Notes: generated from the sequence alone by a model not told the origin. 64,000 nt of DNA from Alphaproteobacteria bacterium (GCA_964291285.2 OZ219789.1:64001-128000), one strand, 5' to 3'; positions 12,590 to 26,804 are shown, counted from the first letter of the stretch. Program-made: numbers and translations.

Positions 12590-13126
12590 TCACCCGAACA
12601 CGAAGGACAGGTGGTTCGACGCCGCGCCCTCGTCGCAGTTGTCGTTCAGCCACGCCAGGTCGCGCGACACCGGCGCGACCGCGCTGACCGTCGCCGGCGC
12701 GGCAGCCGCGACCAGCATCGCCACGATCCCCGAGCCCGAACGCGTGCGCCCCACATAGGCCTCGCCCAGCGCCTTGCAGGTCTCGTCGTCCAGTTCCTCG
12801 AAGGTGATCTGGAACCGCCCGCCATTGCCCCGGATCGACACCGCCGCCCCGAACGGGTGCTCGATCGTCGCAGTGCCACCCGTCCCCTTCCGGGCCCCGT
12901 CCGGAATCCGCCCGAACCCCGCCATCACCGGCACGATGTCGTCGTTGTTCGCCCCGTAGCTCGACTGGCTCGCATAGGTGCTCTCCACGTTCGCGCGCAG
13001 CATGTTCAGCAGGCGGATCGACTCGCCCTCCTTCAGCTTCGAGGTGATGCCGTTGTAGATGGCCACCACCACGACCAGGGCCACCAGGCCCGCGATCACG
13101 CTCAGCAACACTCCGACCGGATTCAT
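12590..13126 (-). CDS. pilS: Type IVb major pilin PilS-like, copy 2
   Basis: Hydrophobic N-helix, HPFGAAV motif, FQITFEEL...C, Cys pair, C-terminal LSFVFG. AGGAGG SD. Confidence 0.8.
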   Translation of the reverse strand: MNPVGVLLSVIAGLVALVVVVAIYNGITSKLKEGESIRLLNMLRANVESTYASQSSYGANNDDIVPVMAGFGRIPDGARKGTGGTATIEHPFGAAVSIRGNGGRFQITFEELDDETCKALGEAYVGRTRSGSGIVAMLVAAAAPATVSAVAPVSRDLAWLNDNCDEGAASNHLSFVFG

Positions 13127-13211: not shown

Positions 13212-13745
13212 TCACCCGAACACGAAGATCAGGTGGTTCGACGCCCCGCCCTCGTCGCAGTTGGCGTTCAGCCACGCCAGATCGCGCACGATCGGGTCTC
13301 CCCGGTGGACCCTGGTCGGCGCGGCCGCGCGCACCCGCATCCGCACGATCCCCGAGCCCGAACGCGTGCGCCCGACATAGGCCTCGCCCAGCGCCTTGCA
13401 GGTCTCGTCGTCCAGCTCCTCGAAGGTGATCTGGAACCGCCCGCCATTGCCCAGGATCGATACCGCCGCCCCGAACGGGTGCTCGATCGTCGCACTGCCG
13501 CCCGTCCCCTTCCGGGCCCCGTCCGGGATCCGACCGAACCCCGCCATCACCGGCACGAGGTCCGTGTCCGTCCCGTAACTGCTCTGGCTCGCATAGGTGG
13601 CCTCCACATTCGCGCGCAGCATGTTCAGCAGGCGGATCGACTCGCCCTCCTTCAGCTTCGAGGTGATGCCGTTGTAGATGGCCACCACCACGACCAGGGC
13701 CACCAGGCCCGCGATCACGCTCAGCAACACTCCGACCGGGTTCAT
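13212..13745 (-). CDS. pilS: Type IVb major pilin PilS-like, copy 1
   Basis: Near-identical paralog of 12590-13126, directly after pilR. Confidence 0.8.
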   Translation of the reverse strand: MNPVGVLLSVIAGLVALVVVVAIYNGITSKLKEGESIRLLNMLRANVEATYASQSSYGTDTDLVPVMAGFGRIPDGARKGTGGSATIEHPFGAAVSILGNGGRFQITFEELDDETCKALGEAYVGRTRSGSGIVRMRVRAAAPTRVHRGDPIVRDLAWLNANCDEGGASNHLIFVFG

Positions 13746-13757
13746 GCCCCTGCCTCC

Positions 13758-14822
13758 TCAGTAGTTCTGCACCGCGGTCGCGATGTCGAAGCTGACCCAG
13801 AAGATCCACAGCATCTGCGCCGTGCCGAGCGTCATCAGCACCGTGTTCAGCACCATGGTCTTCGCCCGCATCACCGCCTCCGAGCGCTCGATCCAGCGCT
13901 CCACGAAGCCCGCCAGCGTCTCCTCCCAGTCCGCCCGGCCCTCCATCGCCGCCGCCACCGCCACCAGCGACTTGTCCGGGAACTCGTGCCCGCTCGCGGC
14001 CAGCGCCGAACCGAACCCCAGACCCTCGTTCAGCATCAGCCCGCTCACACGCCGCATCCGCGAGCGCACATAGGACGACGCCCCGCGCTCGAACTGCGCG
14101 AACGTCGCCGCGTTCAGGTCCACCCCCACCCGCAGGAACTCCACGCACACGAACAGGAACCCCGAACCCGACAGCATCCGGTAGAGCGAGAACGGCGCGA
14201 ACCGGTCCGCGAACGCCCGCCCCCGGCCCGTCCAGCGCAGCACCACCAGCCGCCCCGCCAGCACCGCCAGCACCAACAGCAGCCCCGCCTCCAGGTCGTG
14301 CGCGTAAAGACCCTCCGAGGCCCAGGCCAGAACCGCCGAGAACGCGTCCCAGCGCGACGGGTCGCTCACCGCGCGCATCGCCGGGAACACCTCGTAGCCC
14401 ATGAACCACGTCATGCCCGCGCAGCCCAGGAAGATCACCAGCGGCCAGAACAGCGCCATCGCAACCGCCCGCACCTGCTTCGCGCGCATCTCCGCCACCC
14501 GCGCCGCCGCCAGGAACAGCGTCTCCGCCCGCGCCCGGCCCAGGCCGTAGAACACCATCGCCTCCGAAGCCGGAACCCAGCGCGACAGCTCCACCGCGAA
14601 CGCGTCGCCGCCCGCGGCCAGCGCCCTGTTCCAGTCCCGCAGCATCTCCACCCGGAACGTCTCGCGCGCCTTCGCACGCATCACCGCCTCGAGCGCCTGC
14701 GGCATCTCCAGCCCGCCGCGCAGCAGGTCGTGCATCAGGTACCAGATGTCCACCCGCGCGCCCGTCCCGGCCGCCAGGAACCGGCGCGCCCGCAACCGCA
14801 ACGCCGCCGCAAGGCGCCTCAT
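13758..14822 (-). CDS. pilR: PilR/GspF-family inner-membrane platform protein
   Basis: LSRWVPASE, PFSLYRMLSGSGFL and ALAASGHEFPD motifs, multiple TMs. Confidence 0.8.
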   Translation of the reverse strand: MRRLAAALRLRARRFLAAGTGARVDIWYLMHDLLRGGLEMPQALEAVMRAKARETFRVEMLRDWNRALAAGGDAFAVELSRWVPASEAMVFYGLGRARAETLFLAAARVAEMRAKQVRAVAMALFWPLVIFLGCAGMTWFMGYEVFPAMRAVSDPSRWDAFSAVLAWASEGLYAHDLEAGLLLVLAVLAGRLVVLRWTGRGRAFADRFAPFSLYRMLSGSGFLFVCVEFLRVGVDLNAATFAQFERGASSYVRSRMRRVSGLMLNEGLGFGSALAASGHEFPDKSLVAVAAAMEGRADWEETLAGFVERWIERSEAVMRAKTMVLNTVLMTLGTAQMLWIFWVSFDIATAVQNY

Positions 14823-16444
14823 GCCGCCGCCTCCGCCGCCACCGCCGCCAGACCCCGCAGCGCCTCGGCCGCCTCCGGGATCTCCGCCCCCTTCAGCAGC
14901 GCGTCCGCCGGGTCCACACGCCCCGCCGCCACCGCCCGCCAGATCCGCCGCCCCAGCGGAACCCCGCCCATGACGTCGACCCAGTGGTTCCACGCCCCGA
15001 TCGCGTCACGCTTCCCCACTAACCGCAGGTAGCCGTCGTCAGGAACGATCCACTCCGCCACCGCCTGCTGGCCCTCGTAGCCCGCCCACGCCGCCAGAGA
15101 GAGCGCCGACTGGCCCGGACGGCGGCATGCGCCGCAGCCCTGCGGGTCGCGGTAGCGCACCCGCCCCCCCAGCACCGCCTCGAGCCCCTCCGGAAGCGTC
15201 CGGCCCTCCGGCAGGCCCGGACGCGAGCAATGGCGGCACAGCAGCGGCACCAGCGTCTGCTTCATCAGCAGGCGGATGTTGCCCCGCTTCGTCACCTCCG
15301 CCTCCGTCACCCCGAGGTCCATCAGCCGGAACAGGATGCCGTTCGCGCTGTGCACGTGGATCGTCGTCCACACCTGGTGGCCCGAGTCGATGAACTGCAG
15401 CACCTGGCGCGCCCCCGAACGGTCGCGGATCTCGCCCACCATCCCCGAAGCCGGGTGAAGCCGCACGAAATGCATCAGGCCCGCCTGGAAGTGCAGGTCG
15501 CGCTCCTCGCCCGCGCCCCCCGTCGGAACCGCGATCTGGACCGCGCCCTCTATGTCGTATTCGACCGGGTCCTCCAGCGTCACGAGGTTCAGACGGCCCC
15601 CGTGCTCGCGCATCTGCAGCGCCAGGTTCGCCGCCAGCGTCGTCGACTTCCCGTCCCCCGTCGTCCCCCCGATGACGATCCCGCCGTATTTCGACATCCG
15701 GATCTCGCGGAACAGGCTCTCCACCTCCTCCGTGAACCCAAGGTCCGCCAGCGTCCGCGCACTCCCGCCATGGTCGCGGTAGAACAGCCGCGCGAACAGG
15801 TGGTGGCCGTCCGGCTCGTCCGGACCCGCCTCGCAGCGCAGCGCCGCGATCTCCTCCGGCAGCGGAAACGCCTCCGAACGACGGATGCTGAACCCCTGGA
15901 AGCTGCCCCGCTGCAGCGAGGTCTGCCGCGACCCCTCGTCCTTCACGTAGAACAGGAACCCGTAGACCCGGTCCGCGTCGCTCGTCGTCAGAGCCTCGCC
16001 CAGCGCCAGCTTGCGGTCGTTCACGATCGCGAACACCCGGCACCCGTCCGCGCCCTTCTCGAACACCACATCGGAAGCCCGCGCCCGCGCCGCCTCCGTG
16101 AAGATCCCCGCAACGCTCTCCACGATCGCCGGGTCGACCTCCGGACCCTCCGGACCCGAACCGTGGCCGCGCCACACCGCCGCCACCTCCTGAAGCGACG
16201 CCGCCTCCTCGCGCAACGGACCCCGAACCGCCCCCGAACGCTGCAACTCGACCAGAAGCGCCCGCGCCTCCTCGTCGTTCGCATAGCCCCGCGCGAACAT
16301 CACCCGCCCGTCCGACCACACCGCGCAGCGCTCCCGGAACCGCGCGTCCATCCGCCCCCAGCGCACCAGACCCGACGGCAGGACCTCCGGCGCCGGCTCC
16401 CGGAACAGCGCACGATGCCACAGCGGACGGCGACCGGCCGTCAC
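14819..16444 (-). CDS. pilQ: PilQ/GspE-family pilus assembly ATPase
   Basis: Walker A GTTGDGKSTT, TLEDPVEY, VGEIRD, GHQVWTTIH, CxxC...CxxC zinc motif. Confidence 0.88.
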   Translation of the reverse strand: MTAGRRPLWHRALFREPAPEVLPSGLVRWGRMDARFRERCAVWSDGRVMFARGYANDEEARALLVELQRSGAVRGPLREEAASLQEVAAVWRGHGSGPEGPEVDPAIVESVAGIFTEAARARASDVVFEKGADGCRVFAIVNDRKLALGEALTTSDADRVYGFLFYVKDEGSRQTSLQRGSFQGFSIRRSEAFPLPEEIAALRCEAGPDEPDGHHLFARLFYRDHGGSARTLADLGFTEEVESLFREIRMSKYGGIVIGGTTGDGKSTTLAANLALQMREHGGRLNLVTLEDPVEYDIEGAVQIAVPTGGAGEERDLHFQAGLMHFVRLHPASGMVGEIRDRSGARQVLQFIDSGHQVWTTIHVHSANGILFRLMDLGVTEAEVTKRGNIRLLMKQTLVPLLCRHCSRPGLPEGRTLPEGLEAVLGGRVRYRDPQGCGACRRPGQSALSLAAWAGYEGQQAVAEWIVPDDGYLRLVGKRDAIGAWNHWVDVMGGVPLGRRIWRAVAAGRVDPADALLKGAEIPEAAEALRGLAAVAAEAAA

Positions 16445-17799
16445 CGCGGGGCCCTCGACCGCCAGGGGAGCCGGTCGGCCCGCCAGCCCGTCACGCGCAC
16501 CCCCGGAGGACGCGCCTCGACCGCAACCACCGCAACCCCGCCCGGAAGACTGTCGCCCGCCTCCACGCGCCACACCTTCTCGCCGTCCGTCACCGCCGCG
16601 CGCAGCGCTGCGCCCGATCCCGTCACCGCAAACCAGCCATAGTCCGGGGGCGGCTCCGGAGCCGGCGCCGTCCCGGCCTCCTCCGCACCGTCCGCCTCCT
16701 TGCGCGCCAGTTCCGCACGCGAGGCCTCCAGCATCGCCTCATGCGCCGCGCGCACCCGCGCGTCCGCCTCGCGGCGCATCGTCTCCCGACGCAGCGCCTC
16801 GTCAGCACGCGCCGACGCCGACGCCCGCAGCGCCGCCGCAAGCTCCCGGTCCGAAGCCACGATCTCCGCCAGAAGCGCCTGGCGGTCCCGGCACAGCGCC
16901 AGGATCTCGCGCTCCAGACCCAGCGCCTCGCTGAACTCCCCCTCCTCCACCGCGGCCGACAGCATCCGCGCGATCGCCGACCGCGGACACTCGAACACAC
17001 GCAGGATCGCCGGCTCATGCGACCCGGCGGCAGCGGAAGAGGCCGGGGCGGCGGCGGGAAAGACGGACCGCCGCCCCGGCGCGCCGGCGGACAACGGAAC
17101 GGCCGCGTTGTCCGAAGCCGCCGGCGTCCCGCGATCGACACCCGCGCCCGGGGAAGCGGCGGACGGCCCGGGGCCGGAAAGGGAGGGCGGGGTTGCCGGG
17201 GCCGGTGACGACGGCGAAGGCGGCAGCGGCGGAAGCGCGTCCCCCGTCCCCTCCGGCAACGCCGACGCCGGTGACAGCAGCAACGCCCCCGACAGCAGGC
17301 CCGCAAGCAGGGGCAGGGCCCGCGGACGCGCCCGGACACCCGCCGGAGACTTGACGAAAACCCGCCCCGCGGGACAGGATGAGCCCATGATGTCGTCCTT
17401 CGACACCCTCGCCGCCGCCGAAGCGCTCCAGGACGCCGGCGCCAAGCCCGAACTCGCCAAGGCCATGGCCGCCCAGCTCAAGGCCGCGGCGAAAGCCGGC
17501 GAACCCGTCACGAGACCCGAACTCGACGCCGCTCTCGGCGCCCTCAAGGCCGAACTGCTCGAACGAATCGCCGCGACCGACCAGCGGATCACATCCGTCG
17601 AGAAGAACCTGATCGAGCGCATAGCCGAGACGGAACGCCGGCTGATGGACCGGACGGCCGCCCTCGTCTGGCGGCTGTTCGGCGCCATGGTCGCGCTCGC
17701 CGGCATCACCATCGCGGTGCTCGAATACCTGCGCACACCGGCCGGATAGTCCCCGGCGGCCCCGGCAGCCGCAACCGGCCGGAAAATGCCGGCAGACAT
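16441..17799 (-). CDS. PilP-like protein whose 5' region carries a 399-bp in-frame insertion (alternative start 17388)
   Basis: C-terminal beta domain (VTGSGAALRA...VEAGDSLPGGVAVVAV), coiled coil, position before pilQ. GGAG-N5-ATG at 17799. Confidence 0.6.
   Translation of the reverse strand: MSAGIFRPVAAAGAAGDYPAGVRRYSSTAMVMPASATMAPNSRQTRAAVRSISRRSVSAMRSIRFFSTDVIRWSVAAIRSSSSALRAPRAASSSGLVTGSPAFAAALSWAAMALASSGLAPASWSASAAARVSKDDIMGSSCPAGRVFVKSPAGVRARPRALPLLAGLLSGALLLSPASALPEGTGDALPPLPPSPSSPAPATPPSLSGPGPSAASPGAGVDRGTPAASDNAAVPLSAGAPGRRSVFPAAAPASSAAAGSHEPAILRVFECPRSAIARMLSAAVEEGEFSEALGLEREILALCRDRQALLAEIVASDRELAAALRASASARADEALRRETMRREADARVRAAHEAMLEASRAELARKEADGAEEAGTAPAPEPPPDYGWFAVTGSGAALRAAVTDGEKVWRVEAGDSLPGGVAVVAVEARPPGVRVTGWRADRLPWRSRAPR
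17351..17380 (+). promoter_or_regulatory. Putative sigma70 promoter for a leaderless transcript
   Basis: TTGACG-N18-CAGGAT followed by 6 nt and then ATG 17387. Confidence 0.45.
17387..17749 (+). CDS. DUF1640/CCDC90-like coiled-coil protein with C-terminal TM
   Basis: FDTLAAAEALQDAG...A.A motif, VTRPEL, coiled coil, terminal hydrophobic helix. Confidence 0.75.
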   Translation: MMSSFDTLAAAEALQDAGAKPELAKAMAAQLKAAAKAGEPVTRPELDAALGALKAELLERIAATDQRITSVEKNLIERIAETERRLMDRTAALVWRLFGAMVALAGITIAVLEYLRTPAG

Positions 17800-17871: not shown

Positions 17872-19131
17872 TCAGTACCGGTCCCGTGTGAACCGCGTCC
17901 ACACCGTCGGCTTTATCTCGCGCCGGATATCGAGATCGGCGGCCAGTTCGCGCCAGCCGATGCTGCGCGGCCCCGCCGGATCGTCCCGGACCGTCATCTC
18001 CAGGCGGCCCCGCGTCCAGCGCCAGGTTCCGTCGAAATGAGGGCCTGACACCAGGGTCCCCGCCTCGTCCACCACCGAGAACTTCCCCTCGGGATGGAAC
18101 ACGAAGCGCCTGTCCGCATACGCCTCGCCCATGAACGCCAGCGAACGCGGATAGGGACGCGCGATGAAGTGGTCCGTCAGCTGGAACGCCGGATGGCGGT
18201 GGCCCGTCGGCAGATACGGAAACGGATAGCCGACCGGATAGCGGAACCGGACCCTCGGCCCGTCATGGATCTCGATCCACTCGCCCGCCTCGTCCGCCGT
18301 GCGCACGATGTCCCAGTAGCCGTCCGTCATGTTCCAGTGCCCGATCCGCCAGAGCTCCTCCCGGTCCCCGGCGCGCACATAGGTGAGGCCGATGCGCTTG
18401 TAGGTCATCAGCACATTGCCTTCCTGCGCCTCGAGGAAGGCCTCGACCTCCGCCTTCGTCGTCGTCGGCCTGCCGCCCGAAGCGCCCAGGCCCGTGCGGC
18501 CGGGCGACGTCAACCGCCAACCCGGGAAGTGCCGGACCGGCGCGTCCGGGTCCTGGCGGCGCAGCTCGTCCATCTTCAGCGAGGTCTGCTTCTCGTTGAC
18601 CCGGATATGCGCCGGGACCAGGTCCGGACAGGCGTCTGCCAGGGCGCGCGGCCAGCTGTCCTGGATATGGCCCGGATTGGTGAGGACAGCGCCGCCCTGC
18701 CCGTTGACTTCGGTCGCGAGCGTGCCGGTCTCCGGATCGTAGAAATGGGATGCATACAGCCGCTTCTGCGGGTCGATCTGCCACGCGACTTCGCCGCCGT
18801 TTCCCGCCATATGTGTTGACCAGCGGGTCGTGTCGTTGCCCAGCCATTGGAACCTGCCGCCCGGGCGGCGGTGCGCGACGCACTCGTAGGCCGTCCCGTC
18901 GGCGCCGAAGACCACCCCCTGGACGACATTGCGGAACCGCCCGGTCCCCTCGACCACCTTCACCCTGTCCGCGAGCAGCCGGTTGTAGAAGTCGGCACTG
19001 TAGGGCGTATGGTTGATATAGACCTTGCTGTCGAGCTTGGCCGACTGCCCGTGCGCCGTGCAGGAGGCCAGCGCCGCGCCCGCAAGCGCCAGCGCCAGCA
19101 GTCTCCCTGCCGTGAGGTTCGACGGCTTCAT
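17872..19131 (-). CDS. Hypothetical lipoprotein (419 aa)
   Basis: MKPSNLTAGRLLALALAGAALAS-C lipobox, ATGA overlap with the desaturase stop, aromatic/beta-rich body. Confidence 0.75.
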   Translation of the reverse strand: MKPSNLTAGRLLALALAGAALASCTAHGQSAKLDSKVYINHTPYSADFYNRLLADRVKVVEGTGRFRNVVQGVVFGADGTAYECVAHRRPGGRFQWLGNDTTRWSTHMAGNGGEVAWQIDPQKRLYASHFYDPETGTLATEVNGQGGAVLTNPGHIQDSWPRALADACPDLVPAHIRVNEKQTSLKMDELRRQDPDAPVRHFPGWRLTSPGRTGLGASGGRPTTTKAEVEAFLEAQEGNVLMTYKRIGLTYVRAGDREELWRIGHWNMTDGYWDIVRTADEAGEWIEIHDGPRVRFRYPVGYPFPYLPTGHRHPAFQLTDHFIARPYPRSLAFMGEAYADRRFVFHPEGKFSVVDEAGTLVSGPHFDGTWRWTRGRLEMTVRDDPAGPRSIGWRELAADLDIRREIKPTVWTRFTRDRY

Positions 19132-19958
19132 GTCACTGTCTCCCTTCCGTCTCGCGATGGAGTGCGCCGGGCCCGGATGCGGGCCCCGCAAGAGGCCAGT
19201 CCGATCACGAGGCCCGCCATGTCGAGCGTCGGGTGGAACACCGCCCGGCCCGGCGCGGCGTGATGGTTGTTGTGCCAGCCCTCGCCCCAGGTGAGCAGTG
19301 CGACCGCCGGGTTGTTGCGGCTGTCGTCGCCCGTCCGGTGCGGCTGCGCCCCCCAGCGGTGGCAGGCCATCGTCACCAGCCCGCCCGCCCAGAGCGTCGC
19401 CGCCACCGGGACCGCCCAGCCGAAGACCGCCAGACGCCAGTCCAGCACCGCCAGCAGCACAGGCCAGCCGAGCGCCAGCGGCAGGTAGTGCCGGTGCAGC
19501 CACAGGCCGAACCGGTCGCCGCGCAGCTCGCGCCGGAACGCCGCCCTGTCCGCCGGCGCGCCGTAGCTCCCGACCAGCAGCGCCCGCCAGCCGAGCCGGC
19601 CGGCCGGATGCGGGTCGCCCGCCCGGTCGGCATGGGCGTGATGGCGCCGGTGCGTCACCGCCCATGCGGGTCCGGTCCCGAAGCAGCCCATCACTCCCAG
19701 CAGGTGGAACATCACCACCGCCCGGCGCGGCGCCGCGAAACTCCGGTGCGCGAAGTAGCGGTGGAACCCGATCGACAGCCCGACGCAGCCGAAGAGGAAA
19801 TAGCCGGACAGCGCGAGCGCCCACCAGGCGAGACCCGCTTCGGCGAACGCCAGCGCCCACAGCGCGACCGCGCCGGTGACGATCTGGACCGCGCCGAAGA
19901 ACATCATCGGCGCACCCGCCCTCCGGAACAGGTCCGTTCCCGCCGCCGGCGCGCTCAC
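19128..19958 (-). CDS. Membrane fatty-acid (delta-9 acyl-CoA-type) desaturase
   Basis: Three His boxes: HRYFAH, HRRHH, GEGWHNNHH. Start at GTG 19958 (overlap) or ATG 19907. Confidence 0.9.
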   Translation of the reverse strand: MSAPAAGTDLFRRAGAPMMFFGAVQIVTGAVALWALAFAEAGLAWWALALSGYFLFGCVGLSIGFHRYFAHRSFAAPRRAVVMFHLLGVMGCFGTGPAWAVTHRRHHAHADRAGDPHPAGRLGWRALLVGSYGAPADRAAFRRELRGDRFGLWLHRHYLPLALGWPVLLAVLDWRLAVFGWAVPVAATLWAGGLVTMACHRWGAQPHRTGDDSRNNPAVALLTWGEGWHNNHHAAPGRAVFHPTLDMAGLVIGLASCGARIRARRTPSRDGRETVT

Positions 19959-20470
19959 AGCGCGAGCTCGTAGTTGCCGCCCGTCAGCCGGAAGCCGAGG
20001 CGCTTCAACAGCCTGTCGGTCCGCGCGATGTCCACGCCGGAGGCGACATTGACATGCAGGCGGACCGCGCCGCGTTCCCCGGCCCACCGCCGGCAGGCGT
20101 GCAGCAGCTTGATCGCCGCCAGCGACCCCCGATGCTCCGGCAGCACGTAGAAGGCGAGGATCGAGGCGCCGGGCGCGGACGAGTACCAGTGAGGCCCGAC
20201 AGCCGCTGACAGCATGCCGACCGTGCGCTCGCCGCGCTCGGCCTGCACCAGGCAATACCTGCCAGGCTTCGCGAGGCGCTCGACGACGCCCCGCCTGACA
20301 AGTTCCCCATCGAAGGGGAGCGCCTTGTCGCCCATCTCCTCATACGCGCGGCGGGCCAGGCTCACCCGCGCGGCGATATCCTCTTCGGACCGCGAGAACC
20401 GGACGGTCACGCTGCCGGGCCGGGCGTCTGCCGGGCGGGGCGCAGCGGCAACTGCCGGGGCCGCGCTCAT
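19955..20470 (-). CDS. GNAT-family acyltransferase
   Basis: FYVLPEHRGSLAAIKLL (motif A-like), RWAGERGA, LLKRLGF. Overlaps both neighbours. Confidence 0.85.
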   Translation of the reverse strand: MSAAPAVAAAPRPADARPGSVTVRFSRSEEDIAARVSLARRAYEEMGDKALPFDGELVRRGVVERLAKPGRYCLVQAERGERTVGMLSAAVGPHWYSSAPGASILAFYVLPEHRGSLAAIKLLHACRRWAGERGAVRLHVNVASGVDIARTDRLLKRLGFRLTGGNYELAL

Positions 20471-22314
20471 TCCCTGCGCTCCCCGACCCTGAGCGAGACG
20501 TCCCAAAACGCCCTCGGGCCATCCTTGCCGACATATTGGCCCTCGCCGAACACGGTGTTGCCGGCGACGCTTCGCACGACGCCGTCGCTCGTCAGCGCGA
20601 TGGACCGGATGCCGGCCTCGTCGAGGCTGCGCAACTCGCCCGGATCGCTCTCGCCGTCCCGGTCGAGGTCCTGCCAGACCCGGAACAGGGCCCACTCCGC
20701 ATCCTCGGGGTCCAACTGCCCGTCGCCGTCGGTGTCGAAATGGCGGAGGCCCTCGAGGTCCGTGCGCGCGCCCGGCACATAGGAGACGAAGCTCAACTCG
20801 TCATGCGCCGCGATCCGCCCGTCGCCGTCCTTGTCGTAGGCCAGGAAGCCGTCATCGGCGGCGGCCCAGGCCATGCGGGTGCGATAGCCATCGCCGTTGA
20901 TGTCGTAGAACGCGGTCGAGTCCTCGAGCGCCACCAGCTCCACCCCGTCCCCGTCCAGGTCCAGCACGATCGGCTTGGCGCCCCCGCCACCACCATTGTG
21001 GCCGCCATTGTTGGCGCTGTCGCCCTTGCCGCTGGAGCCGCAGCAGCCCACGCTCGGATCCGTGTCGTCGTCGTCGTCTCCGGCCTCGACCCCGTCATTG
21101 TCACCATCATGTCCTCCCGGGCTCTCATATTCGGGGCCGGGCAGGATGGGATCGGTCGGCGGCGGCTGGATGGGCGTCGGCGTCCTGGGCCCGACCGGAG
21201 GCGGATCGGTCGGCCGGGGAGGCGCGCCCGGATCGGGCGTTACCGGATCGGGACGCCGCGGTGGGTCCTGCGGCGGAGGCGGAGGAGGCTGGCAGTTGTC
21301 CACGTTCCGCACCCACCGCCGGGCCCCGACCAGGCGCCATGTCCGCACCACCTCCGCGCCCGGACGGACCTGGAAGTCCCGATACTGCGTGTCCTGCTCG
21401 TAATGCGAGGTGCAGCCGCCCGACCACCCCGAGGGGCAGGAGCAGGAGCCCGTGGTGCGCTGCACCGGCCCCGCATACAGCCGGATCACCGGGTCCGGGA
21501 GCGGGGCCGGGGCCGGCGCCTGCGCATACACATGCGGGCAGAGGCCGCCGGCATGGCGCCACGGGCCGCATTGCGCCTGCGCGCCGAGACCCGCCCGGCG
21601 GTCGCAGTCGCGCGGCCAGAGATGCGCCGCGTCCGGCGCCGTCGCCGCAAGGTCCCGGCCCCGCGCATCGCCCGCCCCGCGAATGTCCGTCGCCTGGATC
21701 GGAACACGACGCGACTCGCGGAAGGTCTCCGCCGCCGAACCCGGACAGGCCACCGTCCGGAACTCCGTCTCCCAGCGGAATCCCGTCACCGTGCGCGCCG
21801 GATCGGCCACCGCCCCCACAAGCCCGACACGATCCTCCCCCAGCGAGGGAACCGACATGCAGGCCGGCAGCGACGCGTCGGCGCGCCCGAGCGCCCCCGC
21901 CGCAATGCGCGTGTTCGCCAGGATCACATGCAGCCCCGCCCGGCCGCCCCGCACCGGCGCCACCTGAACCTCGCGATGGCCCCGGCCCACGCCCTTCAGC
22001 TCGTCGCTGGCCGCATAGACCGCCAGCACCCCGCCGCAATAGCGCGCCGTCAGGCCCCGCTCCGTCCAGGACCCGAGCCACCAGGCGCCGGAGGGCGGGT
22101 CCGAGGCGCCGTCCCATTCGCTCCGCCAGAGCCGGGCCGCGTCCGTCACGCGGATGCGCTCCCCGACACTCGCGAAGGCGGTCCGGATCGCCGCCGCATG
22201 CGCCAGCGCCTCCTGGCGCCGCGTCCGGTCCGGGTCGCCCGTCTGCGCCACGGCGCCAGGCGCGATCGCGGCGAGGGCCAACGCCAGCGCCGCTGCGGTT
22301 CCCGCCTGTCTCAT
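20467..22314 (-). CDS. Secreted Cys/Pro-rich adhesin-like protein with C-terminal FrpC self-processing-module-like Ca2+-binding domain
   Basis: Signal peptide AVA-Q, Cys-rich repeats, Pro-rich and acidic/Gly linker, then KPIVLDLDGDGVE...DDGFLAYDKDGDG...FDTDGDGQLD...RVWQDLDRDGESDPGELRSLDEAGIRSIAL. Confidence 0.8.
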   Translation of the reverse strand: MRQAGTAAALALALAAIAPGAVAQTGDPDRTRRQEALAHAAAIRTAFASVGERIRVTDAARLWRSEWDGASDPPSGAWWLGSWTERGLTARYCGGVLAVYAASDELKGVGRGHREVQVAPVRGGRAGLHVILANTRIAAGALGRADASLPACMSVPSLGEDRVGLVGAVADPARTVTGFRWETEFRTVACPGSAAETFRESRRVPIQATDIRGAGDARGRDLAATAPDAAHLWPRDCDRRAGLGAQAQCGPWRHAGGLCPHVYAQAPAPAPLPDPVIRLYAGPVQRTTGSCSCPSGWSGGCTSHYEQDTQYRDFQVRPGAEVVRTWRLVGARRWVRNVDNCQPPPPPPQDPPRRPDPVTPDPGAPPRPTDPPPVGPRTPTPIQPPPTDPILPGPEYESPGGHDGDNDGVEAGDDDDDTDPSVGCCGSSGKGDSANNGGHNGGGGGAKPIVLDLDGDGVELVALEDSTAFYDINGDGYRTRMAWAAADDGFLAYDKDGDGRIAAHDELSFVSYVPGARTDLEGLRHFDTDGDGQLDPEDAEWALFRVWQDLDRDGESDPGELRSLDEAGIRSIALTSDGVVRSVAGNTVFGEGQYVGKDGPRAFWDVSLRVGERRE

Positions 22315-23591
22315 CCCGCACTCCCCGCCGCGCCGTCCACCGGCAGGCCCGTCAGCGCCGTGAACTCGCTCTGAAGCATCCGGAACGGGCGAGCCCGCCG
22401 GCAGGCGAATACCCAGCCCCCCTCCCGGCTCCACGCCGCGGACACCACCTCCAGGCCCTCGACCGCCGTCAGCATCGCGACCGCCTCGCGCAGCGGGCGC
22501 ACGGTCCGCAACTCCACCTCGACCTCCGCTCCCCACTGCCCGTAGCCGATAGCGAACCCCCGCAGCCCCAGCGCCCTGTCCAGGCGACGGCGGAACGCGG
22601 CTGGCTCCGGCCAGGGCGCGGCCTCCGGGTCGTGGCGCGCCAGCACCGCCGGCAGCGGGCTGAACGCCGCCGCCGTTCCCGTGTTATCCAGAAGGGCGTT
22701 GCGCCAGTCTCCCAGCATGTCCTGCGCCAGAGGCACATGCACGCGCGGGTCGAGGCCCTCGCGCAGGCCCCAGTGCACCTCCAGCACCGCCTGCCCGGAC
22801 AGGCCGCCCGGCGACAGGCCGGACCGCGCCTGCACGAAGCGCGGATGGCACGCCGCCCCCTGCCGCTCCCACCCCGACATCGTGACCCGGTGCGCCTCCA
22901 GCGCCGCCCGGCAGTGCCGCAGGAACGCCCCGCTCCGCACCACCGCGTCGACCATCGGCGGTTCCTCCGGCGGCGCCTTCTTCAGATGGACGAACACCAG
23001 TATGTCGTCCCGATGGTTCCAGGCCGGCCAGGCCCCGCCCCCGGCCAGCACCAGCAGCGCCGCCGCGATGCCCGCGCGCCAGGTCAGGCGCACCTTCGGC
23101 GCTTCGACCATGACCGGCAGGCCCGCCGCCGCACCCGCAAGCGCCCCGCTCTCCACAACCGCCCCGGCCCCGAACAGCTCCGCAAGGCCCGGCGTCGCGA
23201 TCACTGCCGCGTCCTGGCCGCCGGCGCTGCCCAGCGCCCGGTGCGCCTGGTCCGCCGAGCGGTAGACGCTCTCCCCGCCCGGCAGGATGCGCCCGCCCGC
23301 GCTCCGCACGACACCGACACGGTTGCCGCCGTCCTCCTCCACGAAGGCCGCCCAGGCGGCAGGCGCCCCCGCGCCGCCGGATGCCAGCACCGCCCGCAGC
23401 GCCCCGGCAAGCGGCGGCAGGCCGCCCGGCGCCTCCGCCGCCCCCAGAAACCCCGTCTGCCCGTCAAGCTCCACCATCCAGGCATGGCCGCGCTCGCGCG
23501 CCGCCCGCGCCGCACGGCCACGGGACAGCACATCCCGCTCCCAGTCGAGACCGGCCGCAAACCGCCGCCCGCCCACCGCCAGCACGCTCAT
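22311..23591 (-). CDS. pilO: PilO-like pilus accessory protein
   Basis: N-terminal GRRFAAGLDWE motif, central TM, directly after the secretin. Confidence 0.7.
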   Translation of the reverse strand: MSVLAVGGRRFAAGLDWERDVLSRGRAARAARERGHAWMVELDGQTGFLGAAEAPGGLPPLAGALRAVLASGGAGAPAAWAAFVEEDGGNRVGVVRSAGGRILPGGESVYRSADQAHRALGSAGGQDAAVIATPGLAELFGAGAVVESGALAGAAAGLPVMVEAPKVRLTWRAGIAAALLVLAGGGAWPAWNHRDDILVFVHLKKAPPEEPPMVDAVVRSGAFLRHCRAALEAHRVTMSGWERQGAACHPRFVQARSGLSPGGLSGQAVLEVHWGLREGLDPRVHVPLAQDMLGDWRNALLDNTGTAAAFSPLPAVLARHDPEAAPWPEPAAFRRRLDRALGLRGFAIGYGQWGAEVEVELRTVRPLREAVAMLTAVEGLEVVSAAWSREGGWVFACRRARPFRMLQSEFTALTGLPVDGAAGSAG

Positions 23592-25201
23592 CCGCCCGCC
23601 TCCCGGTCCGCGCCCGCCGGTCCTGCACCGCCGCCCGCAGCCGCGACCGGAGCCGGGCCGAACCCCGCCCGCTCCGATATCCCCAGCGGCGCCCCGATCT
23701 CCGCCGTCACCAGAAGCGCCGTCTCCACACGCGCCAGGTCCGCCTTCCGGCCGCCCTCCGGGAACGGCACGTCCTCATGGACCGTCCCCGACCGGGTGCC
23801 CGTCGACGAGCGGTCCCGGAAGCCCGTCAGCAGCAGCGTCTCGCCCCGCGCGATGCGCTGCGTCGCCACGATCGCGCGCCGCCCGCCCGCAGGAAGCTGG
23901 ATCGCGTTGCCCGCAGAGCCGAAGGACGTGAACGCCGGACGGTCCTGGATCGTCGCCGTGATCCGCGCCAGGACCTCGTCATGCCCCACGACCCGCGCCA
24001 CGAAACTCAGCCCGAACCCCGACGACACCGTCCCCGGCGTCAGCTTGTACGACCGCACCCCGTCCTTGACCTCCGTGGCGACCTCCTTGAGGTAGGCCTG
24101 GTCGAACAGGTCGTAGAACTGCGCCGGGCGCCCGTTCAGCGTCGGCACGTCCACCGACAGCAGGCGCGAGGTCGTGCCCACCTTGCGGAGCGCCTTTACC
24201 GTCGCATTCAGCGTCTTCGTTCCGGCGGTCACCGGCTTCACTACCGAAATCGCGCCGCCCTGGAACCCGACCTGCAGGTTCGACCCGAACGCCTCCGGCA
24301 GCAGCCCCGTCAGACCCACCTCGTAGTCCGAGCCCCTGTCGAACCGCACCGAGTAGAGATGCACGCTCAGCGTCACCGGGCGCAGCACATGCCGGTTCAC
24401 ATGCTCCAGCCAGGACCGCACACGGTCCACCGCCCGCGGCAGGCCGGTCACCGTCACCGTCGCGGCCGCCGCCGAGATCGACACCCGGCCTTCGGAACCC
24501 GCGGCAGCCCCGGCCTGCGCCCCGATCTCCGACCAGGGCTCGTAGCTCATCTCCGAGGAGATCGACTGCTCCGAACTCCCCGAGGTCGCCTCGCCGCCGC
24601 TGCCCGAGGTCGTCGTTGTCACCGACCAGGTCTGGCGCCCCACCAGCGCATGCACCCCGAACACCCGCGTCTCGGAGCGCACCACCTCGACCAGCTCCGC
24701 CTCGCCGTCATACTGCCACCGGTAGCCCGCGCACTCCGTCCACGCGTCCAGCAGCCGGTCCAGCGGACCTGCCCACACGCCGCCCTCGCCGGCCAGTTCG
24801 TCCTCCCAGGAGGCCAGCCAGGCCTCGCACGCGCCGCCCGTCGGCGCCGGCTCGTTGTCCCTGTGGGCGGCTTCCCCCCATACGGCCCCGGTCAGCCGCA
24901 CCCCGATGCCGGTCGCTTCGGATATGCGGCGCGCCAGGACCTCGTCCCCCGGACCGTCGCCGAGCGTCACCACGATCCCGGTCTCCGACCTCAGATCGGC
25001 CGGAAGAAGGGAACGCTCCGGCGCAACCGCCGTCAGCGCAAGATACGGGTCCTTCGATTGCGTGAGGGATCGGAAACCCGGCCGCTCCGGACCCGGAGAC
25101 CCGAGCGAATCCAGCCGATCCTCTACCTCCGATGCCGCCCGGGCGACCTCCTCATGGTCAAGCCAGCCGCAGCCCGGCAGCGCAATGGCCGCCGCCAGCA
25201 A
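23588..25201 (-). CDS. pilN: PilN/BfpB-type lipoprotein secretin
   Basis: Lipobox LPGC, VTVTGLPRAV, PVTLSVHLYSV, TLNGRPAQ, LTPGTVSSG, GETLLLTGF. The true start may lie slightly upstream. Confidence 0.85.
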   Translation of the reverse strand: MLAAAIALPGCGWLDHEEVARAASEVEDRLDSLGSPGPERPGFRSLTQSKDPYLALTAVAPERSLLPADLRSETGIVVTLGDGPGDEVLARRISEATGIGVRLTGAVWGEAAHRDNEPAPTGGACEAWLASWEDELAGEGGVWAGPLDRLLDAWTECAGYRWQYDGEAELVEVVRSETRVFGVHALVGRQTWSVTTTTSGSGGEATSGSSEQSISSEMSYEPWSEIGAQAGAAAGSEGRVSISAAAATVTVTGLPRAVDRVRSWLEHVNRHVLRPVTLSVHLYSVRFDRGSDYEVGLTGLLPEAFGSNLQVGFQGGAISVVKPVTAGTKTLNATVKALRKVGTTSRLLSVDVPTLNGRPAQFYDLFDQAYLKEVATEVKDGVRSYKLTPGTVSSGFGLSFVARVVGHDEVLARITATIQDRPAFTSFGSAGNAIQLPAGGRRAIVATQRIARGETLLLTGFRDRSSTGTRSGTVHEDVPFPEGGRKADLARVETALLVTAEIGAPLGISERAGFGPAPVAAAGGGAGPAGADREAGG

Positions 25202-25373
25202 AACGGCCCGGGCAGCCGCTCCGGAACCCGATGCGGGGACGCTCGAACCGCCCGAAAGTCCTTGCCGCGCCGTGGTTGACAGGACCCCGAATCCCTCTCA
25301 ATCTTTTTCCGAATGCGAAGGTCGGTCGGCTGCCACTCATGAACATGACCGCGTTGTATGTCTTCGATATCGA

Positions 25374-25460
25374 CCAATCAAGAAAACAAGGCCAAATCAG
25401 CAAAAATGTTTCACTACATTTTTCTCAACCCGCGCCAATCATCACCTCACTATCCAATCA
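25374..25460. promoter_or_regulatory. Putative operator array: AAAAATGT-N6-ACATTTTT palindrome flanked by CCAATCA direct repeats
   Basis: Perfect 8-bp inverted repeat at 25402-25423. CCAATCA at 25374, 25435 and 25454, and CCAAATCA at 25392. Confidence 0.5.
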
Positions 25461-25589
25461 TTTCAACAACTTGGCGAAACCGCGCCCGGCAAAAATCGAC
25501 ACCGACTGTTCAAGTTGGGTCAGAAAGTGGCGCCGCTCGGCCGCGCGGCACCCGGGGACGCGGCTCCGGATTCCGCTTCCCTGGGGACC

Positions 25590-25616
25590 ATCATACCACA
25601 ATCCGCCAGATGTCAA
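25590..25616 (-). promoter_or_regulatory. Putative sigma70 promoter of the pil/dot operon
   Basis: Minus strand TTGACA-N15-TATGAT with a TG extension and AT-rich upstream tract. The spacer is shorter than canonical. Confidence 0.45.
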
Positions 25617-25684
25617 GATCAAATCAAGAATAAAAATCAATTTAATTAGATTTTTTTCATATTTCACGACTTTGGAAGGAACGG

Positions 25685-26302
25685 CTATTGCGGATCCGCC
25701 TCCCGGCCGAGCAGCAGCCGGATGCCGAGGCCGCCGAGGATGAGGGCGGCGGTGCGGTCGATATACCGCTTCGCCCGCATGTAGCGCTTCGCGACGGCCT
25801 CCGTGCTCATGCAGAAGGCGAGCGTCGAATAGAAGGCGACCTCCACCAGGAAATGGTTGGCGACGATCAGCGCGCTCTCCGCCGCGCCGAGCCCGGCGGG
25901 AAACACGGTGACCAGCAGGGCGGCCGCGAACAGCACGGATTTGGGATTGAGCAGGTTCACCAGGAAGCCCTGTCGGAAGGCGCGCGCCGCCGGCGCCGCC
26001 TTCGCCCCGGCCGGCGCGGAGCAGTCCCGCCACATCCTCCAGGCGAGCCAGATGAGATAGGCCGCGCCCGCGACCTTCGCCGCCGTGTGGACCGCCGGGA
26101 ACAACCGGAAGACGGCGCCGAGGCCGAGCAGCGCCATCCCCGTCCATGCGGCCGCCATCGTGCCGAGGCCGAAGCCCACAGCGATCCCCGCCCTTCTGCC
26201 GGTGCTGAGCGAGGTCTGGACGGCCATCAGCAGCGCCGGCCCCGGACTCGCGATCGCGGCCGCCAGCACGAGGTTGAAGGCGAGAACCTGTTCCAGCGTC
26301 AT
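25685..26302 (-). CDS. LysE/RhtB family exporter
   Basis: SPGPA, GAAYLIWLA and GFLVNLLNPKS motifs. Confidence 0.9.
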   Translation of the reverse strand: MTLEQVLAFNLVLAAAIASPGPALLMAVQTSLSTGRRAGIAVGFGLGTMAAAWTGMALLGLGAVFRLFPAVHTAAKVAGAAYLIWLAWRMWRDCSAPAGAKAAPAARAFRQGFLVNLLNPKSVLFAAALLVTVFPAGLGAAESALIVANHFLVEVAFYSTLAFCMSTEAVAKRYMRAKRYIDRTAALILGGLGIRLLLGREADPQ

Positions 26303-26345
26303 GCGTTTTCCTCCCGCCGATCCGGCTGCGCCGCATCCGCCGCGG

Positions 26346-26804
26346 TCACGGGCTCCCATCCGCCCAGCGGCTCATGACCGTGCGCTTCTCGACGCCGTAG
26401 CCGAGCCCTTCGTAGAAGCGGCGCACCGCCTCGTTTTCCTCGCGGATCATCAGCATGACCTTGGGCGCGCCGGCCCTGGCGAGCCAGGCTTCGGCATGGC
26501 GCATCAACCGTTCACCCAGACCCTGCGAGCGGTGTTCCTGTGCAACGGCGAGGTAGTAGACCCAGCCCCGATGGCCTTCATATCCGGCCATGACGCTGCC
26601 CGCGATCGCGCCGTCGCCGCCGGAGACCGCAACGAAGATGTCGGACGAAGCGTTGGCGCACGCGCTTTCGATATCGCGACACGGGTCGTTCCAGGGCCGC
26701 ACCAGCCCGCAGACGCGCCAGAGTTTCGCAACGCCGTCCTCGTCCCCGTCGCGGATCGGGCGGATAGCGAACCCGTCCCGGCCTCCCTCTTCGCCGCCTC
26801 GCAT
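26346..26804 (-). CDS. GNAT acetyltransferase, YpeA-like
   Basis: LVRPWNDP, MAGYEGHRGWVYYLAV and FYEGLGY motifs. Confidence 0.88.
   Translation of the reverse strand: MRGGEEGGRDGFAIRPIRDGDEDGVAKLWRVCGLVRPWNDPCRDIESACANASSDIFVAVSGGDGAIAGSVMAGYEGHRGWVYYLAVAQEHRSQGLGERLMRHAEAWLARAGAPKVMLMIREENEAVRRFYEGLGYGVEKRTVMSRWADGSP

Follow-up and report, generated by a model that had tools for sequence, protein, structure and literature searches.

A GNAT gene co-varies with a Lys-Pro calcium-binding module in an exchangeable cassette of an alphaproteobacterial type IVb pilus operon: possible acylation of the junction lysine

Herein, we describe a four-gene cassette in the pilus operon of an Alphaproteobacteria bacterium (GCA_964291285.2) and consider the modification that its enzymes may carry out. 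The cassette lies in a 64,000-nucleotide stretch of the genome (C5:64001-128000, hereafter the window), where four consecutive minus-strand genes at 17872-22314, between the secretin and PilO-position genes on one side and the PilP-position and ATPase genes on the other, encode a secreted protein with a calcium-binding tail (A), a GNAT, a desaturase and a lipoprotein (D). Comparison with other loci revealed that A and D are constant components of this pilus lineage, and that the C-terminal module of A together with its matched enzymes is an exchangeable cassette. The tail of A is homologous to FrpC's self-processing module (SPM) and begins directly after a conserved lysine. A sequence-only reading of the window had suggested that the desaturase and the GNAT make an unsaturated acyl chain and attach it to the secreted protein or to the pilus. 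Since the best-supported, if still tentative, reading is now the GNAT acting on the junction lysine, that lipidation idea survives in a sharper form, with one lysine, a modular cassette and a wider link between GNATs and Lys-Pro (K-P) modules.

Third-position GC (0.8-0.97) tracked exactly the four reading frames, and the genes were joined by start/stop overlaps, namely ATGA between PilO and A, ATGA between A and the GNAT, GTGA between the GNAT and the desaturase, and ATGA between the desaturase and D (Table 1). D did not overlap the next gene. An alternative start of the desaturase at the ATG at 19907, giving 259 aa, is also possible. The four overlapping genes between pilO and pilP were found where the sequence-only reading had placed them, the names pilO and pilP being given by position and length only.

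Protein A contains 12 Cys, 56 Pro and, as had been counted, exactly five Lys residues (107, 430, 447, 495 and 597). Residues 448-602 of A matched the 177-residue self-processing module of FrpC (PDB 6sjw_A, E 2.8e-24; 6sjx_A, E 1e-23, over 446/448-602), bearing out the predicted calcium-binding C-domain. A Pfam scan of A found no HemolysinCabind match and no RTX nonapeptide repeats. The tail coincided with the precomputed family PF26745 in all 29 tail-bearing clusters (29/29). As described in the available text of PMC7078468, from which the residue roles of the Ca2+ ligands are also taken, the SPM of FrpC folds on four Ca2+ ions and twists the Asp414-Pro415 amide, whereupon the Asp side chain attacks and an anhydride is formed. 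In the HMMER alignment to 6sjx, K447-P448 of A fell on D414-P415(A), within a linker reading GGGGAK447-P448; the scissile Asp-Pro of the SPM is therefore not present in A, which has Lys instead. The same alignment showed that A keeps the Ca2+ ligands D419/D421/D423/G424, the D455/D456 pair, the three EF-hand-like loops, W451, W519 and the Pro. The transient fifth Ca2+ site (D414, D478 and D579) was not kept, as D414 is replaced by Lys and A shows a gap where the 'GDN' stretch with D478 would lie; D579 falls outside the printed alignment, and a conserved FWD motif near the end of A is a possible counterpart.

The junction lysine was conserved. Where the end of A was visible across loci and copies (n=14), the junction read K-P in 12 and K-G-P in two, and among the 29 tail-bearing A clusters it read K-P in 25, K-G-P in three, Y-P in one and never D-P. 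The sequence-only reading had singled out two lysines of the flexible linker, and the one in GAKP is the conserved one (K-P or K-G-P in 14/14 junctions and 28/29 clusters), whereas the one in SSGKGD (K430) is not conserved. Between loci, the tails were 71-85% identical where the N-domains were only 50-69% identical. The SPM-like tail family is very large and numbers 19,678 representatives when the threshold is set at E <= 1e-3. A crude tally of motifs in the best 150 of these (P0121-P0270) gave K-P 47, P-P 32, S-P 29, A-P 25, L-P 12 and D-P 7; the count took the residue pair before the first Ca2+ loop, and some of the counted motifs are internal loops, making these figures rough. All of the closest tail relatives (70-85% identity) have a Gly-rich stretch and then K-P. 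Many giant proteins among the 150 representatives carry two to four SPM-like modules.

The distribution of the cassette was determined by a profile scan over one genome per species, which yielded 15 loci, all labelled 'MAG: Alphaproteobacteria bacterium' (MAG, metagenome-assembled genome), and by a metagenome scan, which yielded eight more. The interval between A and D could be seen in 18 of these 23 loci; left out were three with D but without pil genes or A (L016, L017 and L020) and two fragments (L028 and L029). The slot between A and D held a GNAT and a radical S-adenosylmethionine (SAM) enzyme in ten loci (L007-L010, L014 and L021-L025), a GNAT and a desaturase in two (L013 and L018), a polyprenyl synthase and a SAM methyltransferase in two (L012 and L015), and nothing in the remaining four, which had A and D only (L011, L019, L026 and L027). 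From these slot contents, A and D emerge as the constant pair and the enzymes as exchangeable. The notion of a fixed four-gene system was accordingly rejected on synteny across genomes, the desaturase being found in only two of the 18 informative outside loci, with varied or empty slots elsewhere; the co-occurrence of desaturase and A that the sequence-only reading had anticipated failed on the same count.

The co-occurrence of the GNAT with A, in contrast, was confirmed across genomes and followed the tail. A GNAT was present in 15/15 loci or copies with a visible SPM tail (11 outside loci and four copies in this genome), and an SPM tail was present in 0/6 loci without a GNAT. Twelve outside loci have a GNAT, and the tail was visible in 11 of them; in the twelfth, L024, A lies off the contig. 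All four island copies in this genome carried the SPM tail, GNAT, desaturase and D, and this was true even of the copy whose pilus proteins show only 35-51% identity. In both polyprenyl synthase/methyltransferase loci (2/2), the tail of A was a CFI-box-CTERM domain (NF041770, 41.2 bits vs a cut-off of 40). This layout of CFI-box, polyprenyl synthase and methyltransferase recalls, by analogy, Cys prenylation plus methylation. In three of the enzyme-less loci, A ended in ...GNGGSPP, about where the tail would begin. Of the 57 clusters in the A family, 29 had the SPM-like tail, 11 the CFI-box tail and about eight a GNGG[S/G]PP end. Two side observations concern these loci: the CFI-box tails of A at L012:6446-7966 and L015:5841-7949 read Cys-Phe-Leu-Thr-Thr-Ala ... 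R-x-F-R-D, and one MAG chromosome carries four pil loci (L007, L012, L013 and L014) with three cassette types.

The tail-less ends bear on an alternative in which the Lys-Pro module is still a Ca2+-triggered, self-removing tail (for example, through a C-terminal lactam formed by the lysine amine), acetylation of the lysine by the GNAT serves as a timer or safety catch, and the third enzyme has nothing to do with A. Tail-less A proteins end in ...GNGGSPP or ...GNGGGPP exactly at the module start, where tailed forms read ...GGGGK-P, and the fact that these variants stop there suggests that mature A may normally end at this point. In addition, all structural Ca2+ sites and both SPM Trp residues are kept, and the GNAT resembles an acetyltransferase. 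However, the scissile Asp is missing, the alignment shows a deletion of the D478 stretch that belongs to the transient fifth Ca2+ site, and the constant presence of a desaturase or radical SAM enzyme with the GNAT in pil loci is left unexplained. We also know of no precedent for Lys-mediated SPM cleavage, which counts further against a self-removing tail, and we consider such a tail decidedly unlikely. In the available text of PMC7078468 and PMC12538545, SPM cleavage is described for Asp-Pro only.

The exchange of the third gene was traced on a maximum-likelihood tree of D (25 rows), in which the six desaturase-type rows fell in at least three places among radical-SAM-type rows; a minimum of three changes is required. 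Monophyly of the desaturase-type rows, a group defined after the tree was seen, was rejected (delta lnL 297.8, approximately unbiased (AU) test p-AU 4e-101). These changes on the tree and the AU rejection indicate that desaturase and radical SAM enzyme can stand in for each other beside a GNAT and a tail that stay unchanged. When the window was compared with the diverged island copy on contig C3, identity was 72% for the desaturase, 71% for the SPM-like tail and 59% for the GNAT, followed by 51% for PilQ, 50% for the A N-domain, 42% for PilR, 40% for D, 39% for the PilO-position protein and 35% for the PilP-position protein, indicating that tail, GNAT and desaturase are the best-kept parts of the operon.

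It could be argued that the cassette is cargo carried along at a site of the pilus operon where recombination is frequent, that the co-variation reflects physical linkage only, and that the genes do nothing for the pilus. The 3' end of A, which encodes the tail, adjoins the enzyme genes, and single insertions or deletions could yield every pattern observed; unrelated enzyme sets occupy the slot in different loci; GC at 18-22 kb (0.71-0.73) is slightly below that of the island DNA around it (0.74-0.79); and the GNAT was not found at E <= 1e-15 in 400 other genomes of the class, among them a genome from the same genus and another from the same family. Against this, all four genes overlap by start/stop codons inside the operon, diverged copies differ less in GNAT, desaturase and tail than in the pilus machinery, and the pairing of GNAT and K-P module recurs on plasmids with other proteins and another secretion system, beyond any linkage to pil genes. 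Mere cargo is thus, in our estimation, a distinctly improbable explanation.

The plasmid evidence came from distant relatives of the GNAT, found in 20 records of alphaproteobacterial plasmids. Twelve loci were inspected; left out were Neorhizobium and Phaeobacter porticola, together with four more records of Cereibacter and two more of Thioclava. The members of this plasmid clade were 27-41% identical to one another and 24-33% identical to the window GNAT. In seven of the 12 loci (Martelella, Cereibacter, Roseibium, Rhizobium, Leisingera, Ensifer and Agrobacterium), the GNAT-clade gene lay 1.3-2.6 kb upstream of an SPM-like module with [G/S]-K-P in front of it, and the protein that bore this module in its N-part was a giant Ca2+-binding, Hint or FG-GAP protein. 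Three of the seven loci adjoined type I secretion system (T1SS) genes, the order in Martelella being GNAT, 3940-aa protein, T1SS ABC exporter and HlyD. The plasmid cases differ in the proteins, the secretion route and the taxa involved, and linkage within the pil locus therefore cannot explain the association between GNAT and K-P module. On a Thioclava plasmid (L043) and a Paracoccus plasmid (L048), the GNAT-clade gene stood between a gene for a Hint-domain protein and one for a type I polyketide synthase (PKS) of about 2300 aa; no SPM-like module was found at either locus, and the PKS may be another acyl-supplying partner for the GNAT clade. Small genes following the plasmid GNAT were also considered as a conserved third component and rejected, as they matched no Pfam family and only those of Phaeobacter and Leisingera were related.

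The family assignments of the enzymes were examined next to these associations. The GNAT matched PF00583 (4e-9, 37.2 bits, cut-off 20.7), and E112-x-R114-G115-S116 was invariant in 14 GNAT sequences (alignment A4). A profile search at E <= 1e-10 gave 93 clusters, whose names say no more than GNAT or hypothetical; a Pfam scan at E <= 0.01 gave Acetyltransf_1, Acetyltransf_7 and Rv0428c_C only; ESM Atlas returned generic GNAT clusters only, mostly viral; and a single-sequence PDB search returned no match. The sequence-only reading had likened the GNAT to the acyltransferases that activate RTX proteins, but membership of the HlyC family was rejected on the Pfam scan, which gave no match to PF02794 and had acetyltransferases as its best family matches.

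The desaturase matched PF00487, FA_desaturase (2.1e-14, 54.4 bits, cut-off 29.7), and carries the His boxes HRYFAHR, HRRHHAH and HNNHHA and two hydrophobic blocks. It aligned with the acyl-CoA desaturase SCD1 (4ymk_A, E 3.7e-13) over all His boxes, and its only solved relatives are acyl-CoA desaturases; the NCBIfam DesA equivalog scored 57 bits against a cut-off of 400. The idea of a lipid-type desaturase partner was upheld to the extent that the likeness to SCD1 would fit an acyl-CoA donor. For the radical SAM enzyme, the best solved relative was the lipid-tail enzyme GDGT-MAS (E 9.9e-19), followed by MoaA (1.3e-11), and all NCBIfam matches were far below their cut-offs. The polyprenyl synthase scored as an ordinary long-chain prenyl diphosphate synthase. 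At L021:8987-10780, the radical SAM frame continues without a stop into the C-terminal two thirds of D, in agreement with cluster P0084 (483 aa, PF04055); this could be either a natural fusion or a truncation of D.

Lipoprotein D has a signal peptide ending in the lipobox L-A-S-C24, with the Cys present in >=90% of 58 aligned homologues. Homologues of D numbered 130 at E <= 1e-3, belonged to no family, were all 'hypothetical' where named and came mostly from uncultured Alphaproteobacteria. No Pfam or NCBIfam family, no tblastn match in 72,556 plasmids and no Foldseek match in the PDB at E <= 0.001 was found for D. A model of D (predicted local distance difference test (pLDDT) 89.3, predicted template modelling score (pTM) 0.83) placed a lipocalin-like barrel at residues 39-221, VIA-align giving ToxS at Z 7.9 (root-mean-square deviation (rmsd) 2.9 over 101 residues) and lipocalins at Z 6-7.

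These families raise the alternative that the enzymes make a free lipid or small molecule (an N-acyl amino acid, an aminolipid, a modified lipid at the assembly site or a signal) and that D binds or carries the product. Every enzyme of the slot (desaturase, radical SAM enzyme, polyprenyl synthase and SAM methyltransferase) comes from a family with lipid or small-molecule substrates, the family matches of the GNAT are small-molecule acetyltransferases, D would offer a lipocalin-like barrel, and the enzymes are cytoplasmic or inner-membrane proteins while A is exported by Sec. However, the enzymes follow the C-terminal module of A and not D or the pilus genes (15/15 vs 0/6), the GNAT clade stands beside K-P modules of unrelated giant proteins in 7/12 plasmid loci without a desaturase, a radical SAM enzyme or D, and D is unchanged in the enzyme-less loci. 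A free product is therefore, to our judgement, unlikely.

We propose, tentatively and as a reading that could well be right but that we would not yet call probable, that the GNAT acylates the junction lysine and that the desaturase tailors the acyl donor. The small GNAT would N-acylate Lys447 on the still-unfolded tail in the Ca2+-poor cytoplasm, following the logic of HlyC-type acylation of RTX Gly-Lys sites before export. The SCD-like membrane desaturase would supply or tailor an unsaturated acyl-CoA donor, a role that the radical SAM enzyme would take in sister loci. Ca2+ would then fold the tail after Sec export, and the acyl chain would fix the C-terminus of A, at the pilus or close by, either in a membrane or inside the lipocalin-like barrel of D. 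The part of Lys447 as acceptor, a long unsaturated acyl group rather than acetyl, and downstream roles in pilus function and mating are what we infer. The recurrence of a lipid theme, comprising an SCD-like desaturase, a GDGT-MAS-like radical SAM enzyme and a lipocalin-like barrel predicted in D with a middling Z, may be counted in favour of acylation.

Several points weigh against this proposal. Since A has a Sec signal peptide, a cytoplasmic lipidation must precede Sec export, and the route is not established. The GNAT lacks a match to the HlyC family, and its relatives are acetyltransferases (weak AAC(6') matches; 2eui_A, 8.2e-6). The likeness of the radical SAM enzyme to GDGT-MAS spans the common core domain only, and the Z of 7.9 for the barrel of D is within the range that the tool calls common. 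One cluster of A has Y-P at the junction. In 5/12 plasmid loci, the GNAT has no K-P module nearby (two with Hint protein and type I PKS, three with nothing relevant). Because the tail DNA and the enzyme genes are contiguous, much of the co-variation between them could be explained by one deletion or insertion, and because four of the 18 outside loci have no enzymes, the modification would be dispensable for A and D as such.

The role of A itself may be pilin-like or PilM-like, judging from a model of its N-domain (pLDDT 81.4, pTM 0.58). The A family comprises 57 clusters, and other genomes, too, have A in their pil loci. Over its first ~143 residues, the mature part modelled as a pilin-like alpha/beta fold; the best VIA match was 3eoi_B, 'putative PilM' (Z 7.0, rmsd 3.9, 112 of 123 residues), with the next rows 2.2 lower, minor and major type IVb pilins ranking next at Z <= 4.8, and Z 7.0 being in the range that the tool calls common. 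Foldseek gave no PDB match for the N-domain at E <= 0.001. The label of adhesin attached to A by the sequence-only reading is unproven, the N-domain having no informative match beyond the pilin-like fold. Its statement that none of the four proteins is a known pil component may not hold for A.

Such a fold would agree with a further alternative, in which A is this lineage's PilM-type biogenesis protein or minor-pilin-like component and the enzymes modify the pilin or another part of the pilus instead of the tail of A. Apart from the match to 3eoi_B, which exceeds those to the type IVb pilins, there is no separate pilM or pilL before pilN here, unlike the IncK reference plasmid. However, a Z of 7.0 is commonplace for the tool, hhalign of the A family with IncK PilM gave a probability of 0.7%, and the enzymes co-vary with the tail of A and not with pilins, which every locus has. 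We regard this alternative as very unlikely.

With acylation of the junction lysine retained as the working proposal, the setting of the cassette can be described. The genome comprises 6.1 Mb in five contigs with ~68% GC. GC is 72-79% over bases 1 to ~25,300 of the window and 65-72% across the remainder, which holds ordinary chromosomal metabolism genes. Pfam and NCBIfam scans showed that the genes of the high-GC stretch, which follow one another in a single long chain on the minus strand, belong to an MPF-I (IncI/Dot-Icm-like) conjugation system, with a PilN-family secretin, a T2SSE ATPase, a T2SSF-like platform protein, two pilins, a PilV-like gene, a nuclease, two TcpQ-family genes, DotD, T4SS_TraI, SSB and a DotB/TraJ-like ATPase. 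The island ends just past the secretin gene, with a sharp edge at ~25300-25700 where GC falls from 0.72-0.79 to 0.65-0.72; a LysE-family exporter gene (25685-26359) comes after the secretin gene at this edge. By tblastn with 24 island proteins, the island was found four times in the genome (n=4): the window copy (1-25300), two close copies on contig C2, at ~272-296 kb and at ~509-533 kb, and a diverged one at ~2093-2119 kb on C3. Protein identity was 83-100% among the three close copies and 35-72% for the diverged copy, which keeps all four cassette genes in the same order and at the same place. Short, isolated D-like fragments were also seen at C3:1834100-1834201 and C3:1412365-1412511 (74% over 34 aa and 47% over 50 aa), and may be remnants of additional island copies.

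The order of the pil genes agrees with that of the IncK reference plasmid operon. The secretin scored 148.5 bits against NCBIfam TIGR02520, below the curated cut-off of 287.65, and its Pfam Secretin match was weak; by tblastn, it matched annotated PilN genes on 255 plasmids. No Pfam or NCBIfam family and no tblastn match in 72,556 plasmids was found for either the PilO-position or the PilP-position protein, and BLASTP against IncK pilO2 and pilP gave E values of 0.34 and 0.16, respectively. The T2SSF, PilS and Shufflon_N scores were below their cut-offs, and that of Bundlin was barely above (22.8 vs 22.3). The tandem pilins are 88% identical to each other; both are retained in the two close copies, and one was seen in the diverged C3 copy. 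The best explanation of the whole is a type IVb (IncI-like) conjugative pilus operon of which the four cassette genes are translationally coupled parts. On the IncK plasmid pNVI1292 (L044:11578-12824), two unannotated genes (184 and 198 aa) lie between pilP and the ATPase gene, so that extra genes in this region of the operon are not unique to the window.

Table 1. Coordinates of the pil operon features and of the parts of protein A in the window
Feature	Position	Strand	Remarks
Type IVb pilus secretin of the PilN family, opening the pil block	23588..25201	-	TIGR02520, 2.3e-43
PilO-position gene, 426 aa	22311..23591	-	Named by position and length only; stop overlaps start of A (ATGA)
Protein A, 615 aa, Sec-type signal peptide	20467..22314	-	Cys-rich N-domain, Pro-rich then Gly/Asp-rich linker, SPM-like tail
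A N-domain, residues 25-345	21280..22242	-	12 conserved Cys (alignments A3, A5)
Lys447 codon of A	20974..20976	-	In place of FrpC scissile Asp414, right before Pro448
SPM-like Ca2+-binding tail of A, residues 448-615	20470..20973	-	6sjw_A homology
GNAT, 171 aa	19955..20470	-	PF00583; start overlaps stop of A (ATGA)
Desaturase, 276 aa from GTG	19128..19958	-	PF00487; three His boxes
Lipoprotein D, 419 aa	17872..19131	-	Lipobox LASC; predicted lipocalin-like barrel and second beta domain
PilP-position gene, 452 aa, low-complexity N-half	16441..17799	-	Named by position only; conserved after D in other loci
PilQ-type pilus assembly ATPase	14819..16444	-	Pfam T2SSE, 5.2e-41
PilR-like platform protein	13758-14822	-	Weak T2SSF match
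Two tandem pilin genes	13212-13745 and 12590-13126	-	Weak PilS and Bundlin matches

Beyond the window, a broader hypothesis may be formulated, which we think somewhat unlikely to hold in full: that K-P SPM-like calcium-switch modules form a distinct, widespread class serving as dedicated substrates of the GNAT clade, which would acylate the junction lysine, and that the conjugative type IVb pili of uncultured Alphaproteobacteria use them in a plug-in lipidation system for a pilus-associated protein, with an interchangeable O2-dependent desaturase and O2-independent radical SAM enzyme, an alternative prenyl-type cassette and D as constant handler. To our knowledge, activity is known for the Asp-Pro form of the SPM only. 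If the proposal is true, a GNAT-dependent modification of Lys would give a function to the Lys-Pro form, a large orphan domain class, and to a clade of GNATs now labelled 'GNAT family N-acetyltransferase' or 'hypothetical'. It would also point to an unrecognised maturation step of conjugative pili, in which a pilus-associated protein bears swappable, enzyme-matched C-terminal modules, and to a new post-translational modification system tying RTX-type chemistry to pili. Two cultivable strains, Cereibacter sphaeroides 2.4.1 and Martelella mediterranea DSM 17316, carry the pair of GNAT and K-P module on plasmids, which makes the question directly testable. For protein engineering, an SPM variant that folds with Ca2+ without cleaving and offers a defined acceptor Lys might be of interest; the Asp-Pro module is the one used by NeissLock, as stated in the available text of PMC7846742. 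In a literature search outside subscription journals and supplements, no paper was found that links a self-processing module to an acetyltransferase, and none that connects radical SAM enzymes with type IVb pili.

The closest known counterpart of the tail is the 'clip-and-link' SPM of FrpC, also present in ApxIVA, which in Neisseria meningitidis has the lipoprotein partner FrpD, as described in the available text of PMC7078468 and PMC5233953. A shares with it a homologous domain with four structural Ca2+ sites and the Trp pair, starting right after a Pro, and its gene adjoins a lipoprotein gene, as frpD and frpC do. However, A has Lys or Lys-Gly for the scissile Asp and lacks the D478 stretch; its module is at the extreme C-terminus of a 615-aa pilus-operon protein with a Sec signal, whereas that of FrpC is internal in an RTX protein of >1000 aa secreted by a T1SS; and A has no RTX nonapeptide repeats and comes with a GNAT. 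No relation between FrpD and D was detected, though no direct comparison was made.

Enzymes of the HlyC/CyaC type acylate Gly-Lys sites of RTX proteins before export. The cassette resembles them in having a small acyltransferase-like gene beside that of a Ca2+-binding secreted protein with a conserved Lys after Gly, and the Martelella order of GNAT, giant protein, T1SS ABC exporter and HlyD mirrors the hlyCABD layout. It differs in that the GNAT has no HlyC-family match and scores as Acetyltransf_1, the putative site is at the boundary of an SPM-like module, the substrate in the window is Sec-exported and pilus-linked, and a desaturase or radical SAM enzyme is added. In mycobactin synthesis, the GNAT MbtK places a long unsaturated acyl chain on the epsilon-amine of lysine, the double bond being introduced by the acyl dehydrogenase MbtN. 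The chemistry we propose would be the same, namely fatty acyl transfer by a GNAT to a Lys side chain with a partner that adds a double bond, but there the substrate is a siderophore and not a protein, and the partner is an acyl-ACP (acyl carrier protein) dehydrogenase and not a His-box membrane desaturase; the likeness is one of chemistry. Lipidation by prenyl groups has precedents in ComQ/ComX and in CaaX prenylation followed by carboxyl methylation. The sister cassette likewise joins a Cys-Phe-Leu-Thr CFI-box tail, an enzyme of the polyprenyl synthase family and a SAM methyltransferase; its synthase, however, scores as one of the ordinary long-chain type, protein prenylation is putative, and the variant is absent from the window.

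As a pilus operon, the locus compares best with the pilL-pilV region for the thin pilus of IncI/IncK plasmids (L044). Both have the order secretin, PilO-size protein, PilP-position protein, ATPase, platform protein, pilin(s) and PilV-like protein, and both adjoin MPF-I transfer genes (DotD, TraI, DotB/TraJ-like ATPase and nuclease). The window differs in lacking pilL and pilM upstream of pilN, in PilO- and PilP-position proteins that are unrecognisable by sequence, in having two tandem pilins and in the four extra genes that it places between the PilO and PilP positions.

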